Part shown: piece after piece, positions 11,735-12,392 of the stretch
Layout: the number at the start of each line of letters is the position of its first letter
Position numbering within the stretch: position 1 is the stretch's first letter
Virus record (IMG/VR): IMGVR_UViG_2737471845_000014
Coordinates: 1-22,360 of that record
Strand: one strand, 5' to 3'
From: a virus
Taxonomy: Duplodnaviria; Heunggongvirae; Uroviricota; Caudoviricetes
DNA length: 22,360 nt
Position numbers and translations under genes: made by a program
Notes under the pieces: model-generated
Databases searched by the model: none
Told to the model about the DNA's origin: nothing
Seen by the model: the letters and a program-made list of their open reading frames with translations, nothing else

Positions 11735-12043
11735 TTACACGAAGCGGATCTGGAGTTTTTTTCCTGTTGCGCGGGCAAATTTTTTCAGTGTGGAAAATGA
11801 TGGTCCACTGACACCTGACGCCAGATTACTTTCCATTCTGCTGATGACAGTTGCTTTGGTTCCCATACGCTCAGCGATCTCAGCCTGGGTTAAACCAGCT
11901 TCTTTACGTGCTGCCAGCATTTCATCAAGCAGCGCAAATTCGTCGGCGATGGCGTCGTATTCTGCTTTAAAAGCTGGATCCTTCATCCATTTATCAGCCA
12001 TTTCATCATGTGTAATGGTTGGCGGATTACGTTTACCAGTCAT
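11735..12043 (-). CDS. HigA-like antitoxin (XRE-family HTH)
   Basis: 102-aa ORF with HTH (LTQAEIAERMGTKATVISRMES) immediately downstream of, and overlapping by 11 nt, the RelE/ParE-like toxin gene; toxin-first order as in HigBA. Confidence 0.8.
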   Translation of the reverse strand: MTGKRNPPTITHDEMADKWMKDPAFKAEYDAIADEFALLDEMLAARKEAGLTQAEIAERMGTKATVISRMESNLASGVSGPSFSTLKKFARATGKKLQIRFV

Positions 12044-12362
12044 GCTTTACCTCCTTCATTCTGGTTTCAGCTTTTTGGCGTTCGGCTGGTGGGGTTTTCT
12101 GGGTCTTCTTGATGAAACTATGCAGCATGATGATGCGTTTTCCTGCCAGGGTGCAGTAAAAGACGCGTGCGATGCCATCACTACCTTTAATCCGAAGCTC
12201 GAAAAGCCCGTTACCGAAAGCACTGGTATGAGGTTCTCCGAGATTGCTGCCGTATACCTTCATGCGTTCAACAAGATGCTGGTATCGGGCGCGCATACTC
12301 AATGGAAGCTGGTCGACCTCCAGCCTGACCTCTTCACAGTAGTATTCGATAGTGTAGTTCAT
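12033..12362 (-). CDS. HigB-like toxin (RelE/ParE superfamily, phage Gp49-like)
   Basis: 109-aa ORF (MNYTIEYYCEEVRLEVDQLPLSMRARYQHLVERMKVYGSNLGEPHTSAFGNGLFELRIKG…) resembling RelE/ParE Gp49-type toxins; paired with the downstream HTH antitoxin. Confidence 0.8.
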   Translation of the reverse strand: MNYTIEYYCEEVRLEVDQLPLSMRARYQHLVERMKVYGSNLGEPHTSAFGNGLFELRIKGSDGIARVFYCTLAGKRIIMLHSFIKKTQKTPPAERQKAETRMKEVKHDW

Positions 12363-12368
12363 GAGTTA

Positions 12369-12392
12369 AAACATAACAAAATGGTTATGTTT
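12369..12392. promoter_or_regulatory. Perfect inverted repeat, candidate HigBA operator
   Basis: AAACATAAC-aaaatg-GTTATGTTT, a 9-bp perfect inverted repeat with 6-bp spacer, 7 nt upstream of the toxin start codon. Confidence 0.5.

Follow-up and report, generated by a model that had tools for sequence, protein, structure and literature searches.

What is the small gene pair that lies in opposite orientation in the early-right region of the lambdoid prophage in IMG/VR record IMGVR_UViG_2737471845_000014, and what does the perfect palindrome in front of it do? We followed up this locus in the whole stretch of DNA analysed (22,360 nucleotides (nt), positions 1 to 22,360 of the record; hereafter the window) and consider it probable that the pair is a prophage-borne type II toxin-antitoxin (TA) operon of the Gp49/Tad/HigB1 kind, which is autorepressed via an operator in its own promoter and expresses a probably leaderless toxin. 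The computational analysis reveals the anatomy of the pair, its family membership and predicted fold, the conserved pairing of the two genes, and the conservation of the repeat and of the promoter geometry. The two genes are arranged as follows, with the toxin gene first.

12033 to 12362, minus strand: toxin gene (109 amino acids (aa), ATG start), encoding a Gp49/Tad/HigB1-type toxin of the RelE superfamily.

11735 to 12043, minus strand: antitoxin gene (102 aa, ATG start), encoding an N-terminal helical region followed by an XRE-type helix-turn-helix (about residues 44-98).

The open reading frames (ORFs) of toxin and antitoxin share 11 nt (12033-12043), and the toxin cannot start before the ATG at 12362, as an in-frame TAA precedes it at 12366-12368. 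A homologous antitoxin gene follows the toxin gene in 58 of 59 loci from many genera, with an overlap of 14 nt in 42 loci and of 11 nt in seven. The pair thus consists, like other type II TA operons, of small co-oriented genes that stay together across unrelated contexts. The antitoxin matches Pfam HTH_3 (E=2.7e-11; XRE-type, residues 44-98). The best matches of toxin and antitoxin among sequences in the PDB are the two chains of one complex, Streptococcus pneumoniae HigBA (6AF3/6AF4), HigA of 6AF3 being the best solved relative of the antitoxin (E=8.6e-5); Mycobacterium tuberculosis HigB1 is a weaker match of the toxin.

The toxin belongs to the Gp49/Tad/HigB1 branch of the RelE superfamily and not to the HigB family of Rts1 or E. 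coli K-12. It matches Pfam Gp49 (PF05973) with 89.8 bits (cut-off 23.9; E=1.2e-25) from residue 15 to 103 (positions 2-90 of the 90 in the profile). The full-length toxin also matches PHROG 2523 (E=3e-44). Besides PF05973, no Pfam family was matched at E<=0.01, classical HigB included, and NCBIfam TIGR02683 (upstrm_HI1419 RelE/ParE toxin) scored 20.9 bits, below its cut-off of 62.85. Homologues are found across Proteobacteria (1942 matches, typically 109-111 aa, 63-70% identity). An AF2 model built on 26 homologues (predicted local distance difference test, pLDDT, 90.3) predicts a strand (residues 4-7), two helices (10-17 and 21-37), four strands, and a long C-terminal helix (92-108) as is typical of Gp49-like toxins (PMC9098466). 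Top Foldseek matches of this model, with template modelling (TM) scores of 0.72-0.77, are HigB of 6AF4/6AF3 (6AF4, 0.76), HigB1 of 7AWK (0.77), and 7NBU; HigB2 structures of Vibrio cholerae reach only about 0.52-0.58, and the toxins RelE, YoeB, and YafQ stand lower in the list. Six residues are invariant in 26 toxin sequences (E55, R57, R66, F83, K85, K89) and align with E66, R68, R77, F93, K95, and K99 of M. tuberculosis HigB1; the pocket residues of the toxin also align with E66, R68, R73, F90, and K92 of S. pneumoniae HigB. The aligned residues of both proteins line the catalytic pocket or lower activity on mutation (PMC9098466; PMC7984235).

RefSeq lists near-identical copies under the generic name 'RelE/ParE family toxin', and ParE2 structures do occur in the fold list, so that a ParE-like gyrase poison instead of an mRNA endonuclease might be considered. 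We regard this as extremely unlikely. ParE2 is found far down the list (TM 0.47-0.49, E > 0.01), the toxin has no match to Pfam ParE (PF05016), the best fold matches are all ribosome-dependent RNases, and the RNase pocket residues are conserved. In addition, a review lists the gp49 family, with about 22,000 members and the gene order toxin then antitoxin, under ribosome-dependent mRNA degradation (PMC11980606).

The reading of the pair given in a preliminary description of the window holds. The 11-nt overlap of a toxin-first minus-strand pair was borne out, and a RelE-like toxin followed by an XRE antitoxin is supported by sequence, predicted fold, gene order, and conserved pairing. The label HigB/HigA-like holds for the gene order and the XRE partner, but the family is Gp49/Tad/HigB1 (PF05973) and not classical HigB.

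The annotated start of the toxin is hereby corrected. In near-identical copies, RefSeq places it at Met23 (87 aa; E. coli EC11, locus L001, 12334-12597; phage POCJ13, locus L002, 6334-6597), which would cost the fold its first strand and first helix. The longer reading of 109 aa is correct because the N-terminus MNYTIEYY is kept in 25 homologues at 62-96% identity, and the Pfam match likewise shows a start 22 codons upstream of that in RefSeq. Escherichia phage PhiR5_2 (locus L084, around 3001) has ATA in place of the toxin start ATG; its operator is intact, as is the remainder of the toxin gene (71% identical), and the toxin may be attenuated or silenced.

The palindrome in front of the toxin gene has two parts that need to be distinguished, the full repeat of the window and its family-wide core.

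12369 to 12392: inverted repeat and predicted operator, with perfect 9-nt arms AAACATAAC (12369-12377) and GTTATGTTT (12384-12392) separated by 6 nt.

12374 to 12387: operator core of the family, TAAC (12374-12377), 6 nt, and GTTA (12384-12387).

Six nucleotides (12363-12368) lie between the repeat and the toxin ATG, the nearest repeat base being the seventh upstream. The number of perfect 9-bp inverted repeats with a spacer of <=12 nt in the whole window (three, versus 1.27 +/- 1.42 in Markov-1 simulations) is not significant alone and was therefore not relied on; about 0.004 such perfect repeats are expected in a given 75-nt stretch. A further perfect repeat at 20573-20591 (AAAGTTAC-G-GTAACTTT) and a TAAC-n6-GTTA sequence at 20584 were rejected as extra operators; they are inside an ORF (20523-20837) and have no link to the TA module. 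Another perfect 9-bp repeat, at 4260 with an 11-nt spacer, has no evident tie to the module.

The case for an operator is comparative. We assembled 84 loci: the window, EC11, POCJ13, PhiR5_2, and 80 fetched genomic loci with homologues of 57-88% identity, whose sources include Gamma- and Betaproteobacteria and Nitrospira. A symmetric 4+4 repeat with a 6-nt spacer is present at the expected place in 78 of the 84 loci. It reads TAAC/GTTA in 75, in flanking DNA that is otherwise unrelated, TACC/GGTA in two (L010, L068), and TAGC/GCTA in one (L045). Five further loci have one arm mismatch in the same geometry, and only one has no repeat (L049, a Candidatus Methylumidiphilus contig). The toxin gene of this contig is 5'-truncated, with homology from residue 7, and is probably a decayed copy. 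In 53/59 loci, the start codon follows the repeat centre at a distance of 17 or 18 nt, and the DNA further upstream is unrelated.

Changes in the half-sites are symmetric and track the start of the predicted recognition helix of the antitoxin. This helix starts with T-[K/Q/H/L/R]-A in all 55 TAAC/GTTA loci with an antitoxin, with S-T-A in the two TACC/GGTA loci, and with V-S-A in the TAGC/GCTA locus. Such an association would be expected of a dimeric repressor and its site, although the sample is small, with three loci that probably represent two independent events. Taken with the conservation of the repeat, it strongly supports the palindrome as a conserved repressor site inside a promoter, and the combination of a helix-turn-helix antitoxin with a predicted palindromic operator in its own promoter, as expected of type II TA operons, is likewise strongly supported by conservation. 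This agrees with the Gp49-type HigBA of Acinetobacter baumannii, in which the antitoxin represses the operon promoter with the toxin as co-repressor (PMC5906591), and with HigA of S. pneumoniae, which binds palindromes in its own promoter region (PMC7984235).

Loci aligned on the repeat, and not a consensus promoter scan, gave the following proposal for the promoter and the translation signals of the window.

12393 to 12398, minus strand: predicted -35 element TTGTGC of the TA promoter, from the alignment of loci.

12370 to 12375, minus strand: predicted -10 element TATGTT, which starts with the final two bases of the core GTTA half-site in the toxin-proximal arm.

12362 to 12363, minus strand: predicted transcription start, at the A of the toxin ATG or 1 nt before it, from the promoter geometry and the missing Shine-Dalgarno sequence.

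12049 to 12056, minus strand: Shine-Dalgarno sequence AAGGAGGT of the antitoxin, 5 nt before its ATG and inside the conserved toxin codons Lys-Glu-Val.

A TTG is present 18-16 nt before the repeat centre in 39/60 loci and TAnnnT, most often TATTAT, 6-11 nt after it in 59/60, which leaves a spacing of 17 nt between the two. The distance from the end of the -10 element to the start codon is 6-7 nt in 54/60 loci. None of 60 toxin genes has GGAG, GAGG, or AGGA within 20 nt upstream, as opposed to all 54 antitoxin genes; E104 and K106 of the toxin, at the antitoxin Shine-Dalgarno sequence, are invariant. Given the 7 nt that separate the end of the promoter from the ATG, and the absence of a ribosome-binding site, the toxin mRNA would be leaderless. 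The locus is thus probably an autorepressed toxin-first operon with a leaderless, weakly translated toxin mRNA and a strongly translated antitoxin. The preliminary description had noted a perfect 9-bp inverted repeat with a 6-nt spacer, 7 nt upstream of the toxin start, as an autoregulatory operator. The coordinates confirm its geometry and the comparison of loci strongly supports its role; 'upstream' is correct as to position, but the repeat is located more precisely inside the predicted promoter spacer and the first two -10 bases.

The same repeat could alternatively form an RNA hairpin, with transcription coming from further upstream and the hairpin limiting toxin translation or stabilising the 5' end. 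The window sequence indeed folds into a 9-bp hairpin (-8.1 kcal/mol, z = -2.27), the symmetric double changes in the three variant loci would preserve pairing too, and the lack of a Shine-Dalgarno sequence at the toxin gene would be in line with such control. However, the TAAC/GTTA sequence is kept in its 75 loci beyond mere pairing ability, and so is the non-palindromic spacer ATATTT. Outside enterobacteria, the repeat is reduced to 4-6 A/T-rich pairs, and the fold of locus L024 is no better than that of shuffled sequences (z = -0.31). The TTG-17-TAnnnT promoter is moreover wrapped around the repeat. Homology of the window to the phage copies stops at about 12388, and homology of the neighbouring module, which encodes an isrK RNA, a C4 antisense RNA, and a Rha-type protein, starts at about 12396-12400; the module boundary is therefore the outer edge of the palindrome. 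Window DNA upstream of 12400 belongs to this other mosaic module with its divergent isrK promoter, so that an upstream promoter of the TA operon would have no space. We therefore consider the hairpin very unlikely and retain the operator.

Several observations weigh against an autorepressed operon with a leaderless toxin. A consensus promoter scan of 11500-12700 returned no site at threshold, and the -10 element overlaps an operator arm, so its conservation cannot be counted in full as separate evidence for a promoter. The start codon is GTG in 25/60 homologues. GTG on a leaderless mRNA is very poorly translated by E. coli, which means that toxin translation in these homologues is extremely low or that transcription begins elsewhere. 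Confidence in the AF2 model of the antitoxin, made from a single sequence, is low (pLDDT 54.7), and the model served only as weak support for helix positions. Literature searches found no experimental datum on the TA pair or any member above 45% identity and no papers on the subfamily of the window or on its copies in the Shiga toxin (Stx) phages POCJ13 and 75/02. For the toxin itself, two pocket residues of M. tuberculosis HigB1, K58 and N73, are not kept (S47 and D62 in the toxin), and two M. tuberculosis members of its Pfam family, HigB2 and HigB3, lack toxicity (PMC9098466).

The last two points, together with the ATA start in PhiR5_2, raise the alternative that the module is decayed or non-toxic. 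The Gp49 protein would then no longer cut RNA, and the helix-turn-helix protein would be a small prophage transcription factor that perhaps influences the back-to-back promoter of the isrK-C4-antirepressor module, whose -35 element (12403-12408) is only about 10 bp from the operator. Yet both ORFs are intact. Neither the six equivalents of catalytic-pocket residues nor the basic C-terminal helix varies among homologues of 62-96% identity from distant bacteria, a sign that purifying selection acts on an active protein. A co-evolved regulatory link is also improbable, since the pair and the isrK module meet at a recombination boundary that does not recur in other loci. Direct regulatory coupling of the TA pair to the adjacent isrK-C4-Rha module was rejected likewise, the boundary at about 12389-12400 being a mosaic junction not shared by other loci. 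Overall, loss of toxin function is unlikely, and we favour an active TA module.

We infer toxicity, RNA cleavage, DNA binding, the transcription start, and the toxin-to-antitoxin ratio along the following lines. Briefly, the first gene would encode a RelE-fold toxin that, by homology, would cut mRNA in the ribosomal A site. The N-terminal part of the antitoxin would bind the toxin, and its C-terminal XRE helix-turn-helix would dimerise on the TAAC-n6-GTTA repeat. Since this repeat fills the spacer of the predicted sigma-70 promoter TTGTGC-17-TATGTT and overlaps the -10 element, bound antitoxin or TA complex would block RNA polymerase and thereby repress the operon. The toxin is probably translated poorly from its leaderless mRNA and the antitoxin from its perfect AAGGAGGT site. 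This difference in translation would keep the antitoxin in excess despite its second place in the operon.

For the window itself, this result matters little, as it adds one more TA cassette of an E. coli prophage, of a kind that automatic annotation had already named. The useful outcome is comparative and consists of a 14-bp operator core and a predicted relation between recognition helix and half-site. Added value would further come from a predicted family-wide design with the operator in the promoter and no ribosome-binding site for the toxin. The absence of a toxin ribosome-binding site and the presence of a strong one for the antitoxin throughout the family suggests how toxin-first modules avoid self-poisoning. 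We judge it evenly balanced whether this entire design, with an operator in the spacer of a promoter whose transcription start coincides with the toxin start codon, a toxin mRNA that is leaderless and poorly translated, and a strong antitoxin Shine-Dalgarno sequence in conserved Lys-Glu-Val/Ile codons of the toxin, is common to a widespread subfamily of toxin-first Gp49/HigB modules that occurs in Gamma- and Betaproteobacteria, Nitrospira, and enterobacterial prophages. If it does, toxin output might respond to conditions that favour leaderless translation.

The genomic setting and distribution of the pair suggest mobility. The window opens with cmoB, cmoA, yecN, and yecE, followed by an integrase gene, and hence represents a lambdoid prophage at the yecE site. 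In the near-identical prophage segment of EC11, the pair is downstream of the repressor and cro-like genes; the replication genes and the Q antiterminator gene come after it, and it is opposed to both in orientation. Of 5426 complete E. coli genomes, only 16 contain the pair at >=80% coverage. A version with 86% DNA identity resides in the Shigella Stx phages POCJ13 and 75/02, at another place of the nin region and with unrelated flanks. A ProQ/FinO-family gene replaces the pair in a closely related yecE-site prophage of strain 09-00049 (locus L085, 11284-11676); in this prophage, an IS66 element is also inserted behind the helicase gene. The distribution of the pair is that of a movable cassette, here inserted in opposite orientation in the early-right region of a lambdoid prophage next to yecE.

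Its immediate neighbours in the window are the following, with two tandem modules to the right that each comprise an isrK RNA, a C4 antisense RNA, and a Rha-type gene.

10813 to 11520: Rha gene, left of the pair.

11540 to 11716: DUF4222 gene, left of the pair and convergent with it.

12438 to 12514, 12539 to 12626, and 12681 to 13043: isrK, C4, and ORF of the first isrK module.

13094 to 13170, 13195 to 13282, and about 13340 to 13891: isrK, C4, and ORF of the second isrK module.

The pair had been placed between Rha genes, which is right but loose, as DUF4222 on the left and isrK and C4 RNA on the right also flank it. The antitoxin stop codon (11735-11737) is 18 nt from the stop of the DUF4222 gene. 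No third co-oriented gene follows the antitoxin, such as the SecB-like chaperone gene of toxin-antitoxin-chaperone (TAC) systems, and no convincing intrinsic terminator was found after it, the sole feature being a 5-bp GC stem at 11703-11721 without a T run. Defence models of PADLOC gave no full-length match; residues 50-99 match the C-terminal end of NsnC (E=1e-8), and matches of the antitoxin are generic helix-turn-helix ones. We therefore make no defence claim; the pair may serve prophage addiction or protection from other phages, or neither. With a chaperone coupled to them, related HigB toxins can act in defence against phages (bioRxiv 10.1101/2024.02.24.581848), but the TA locus has no such chaperone gene.

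Both isrK modules have a conserved promoter, TTGATT-17-TACACT, in common, and the tandem isrK-C4-Rha-type arrangement resembles the antirepressor control region immI of P1/P7, here in duplicate. Several protein calls in this region overlie RNA genes. A match to the Pfam 'Ash protein family' (PF10554) in ORF 13040-13891 (residues 15-111, nt 13082-13372) covers isrK and C4 RNA genes, as do coding sequences that RefSeq names 'ash family protein' (EC11, 12529-13347 of locus L001), which may be translated RNA genes. A long plus-strand ORF (11523 to 13043, 506 aa) crosses the antisense strand of the TA pair and the RNA genes, and its protein call may likewise be a translation of RNA genes. Just upstream of the first Rha gene, ORFs of 248 aa (10029-10775, plus strand) and 268 aa (10041-10847, minus strand) overlap nearly fully on opposite strands. 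The late-regulatory region of the prophage contains a tRNA cluster at 19701-20010 (Met-CAT, Lys-TTT, Thr-TGT, Gly-TCC).

Among known systems, gp49-gp48 of phage N15 and Tad-Ata of the Paracoccus plasmid pAMI2 resemble the pair in Pfam family, of which N15 gp49 is the namesake, and in having the toxin first and a helix-turn-helix antitoxin directly downstream (Dziewit et al. 2007, as cited in PMC5906591 and PMC2701414). N15 shares carriage by a temperate phage, and its gp49 is 45% identical to the toxin over residues 15-105. In contrast to the window toxin gene, gene 49 of N15 is preceded by a strong ribosome-binding site, AGGAGG, and lacks a TAAC-n6-GTTA repeat upstream; the regulatory layout is therefore specific to the subfamily of the window and not common to all Gp49 modules.

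HigBA of S. pneumoniae (6AF3/6AF4) is the best sequence match of both proteins and a top-ranked fold match of the toxin, which has equivalents of its R68, R73, F90, and K92; the complex is a heterotetramer with HigA dimerised (PMC7984235). However, identity in the structural alignment is about 19-20%, D61 is not conserved (G50 in the toxin), and the four palindromes of the S. pneumoniae system have another consensus (PMC7984235). HigB1 of M. tuberculosis (7AWK, 7NBU) shares the Gp49-like fold (TM 0.77), the long C-terminal helix, and six pocket residues with invariant equivalents, and cuts mRNA in the A site after the second codon base (PMC9098466). It is part of a TAC system, whereas the window pair has no SecB-like chaperone gene but a convergent DUF4222 gene after the antitoxin, and also differs at the K58 and N73 positions.

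HigBA2 of A. baumannii likewise combines a Gp49-domain toxin in first and an XRE antitoxin in second position but is plasmid-borne and of a different subfamily (PMC5906591). How toxin-first modules set the toxin-to-antitoxin ratio was stated to be unknown in that study, which found no internal antitoxin promoter (PMC5906591). The design proposed above would, if true, explain antitoxin excess in such 'reverse-order' modules. In the three-component module paaR2-paaA2-parE2 from a cryptic prophage of E. coli O157:H7, the toxin is a ParE and the leaderless gene is a separate regulator and not the toxin (PMC8630535). Like the window pair as proposed here, it is a prophage TA operon in which the promoter of the first gene starts transcription at the start codon, and leaderless translation of this first gene, paaR2, was demonstrated (PMC8630535).

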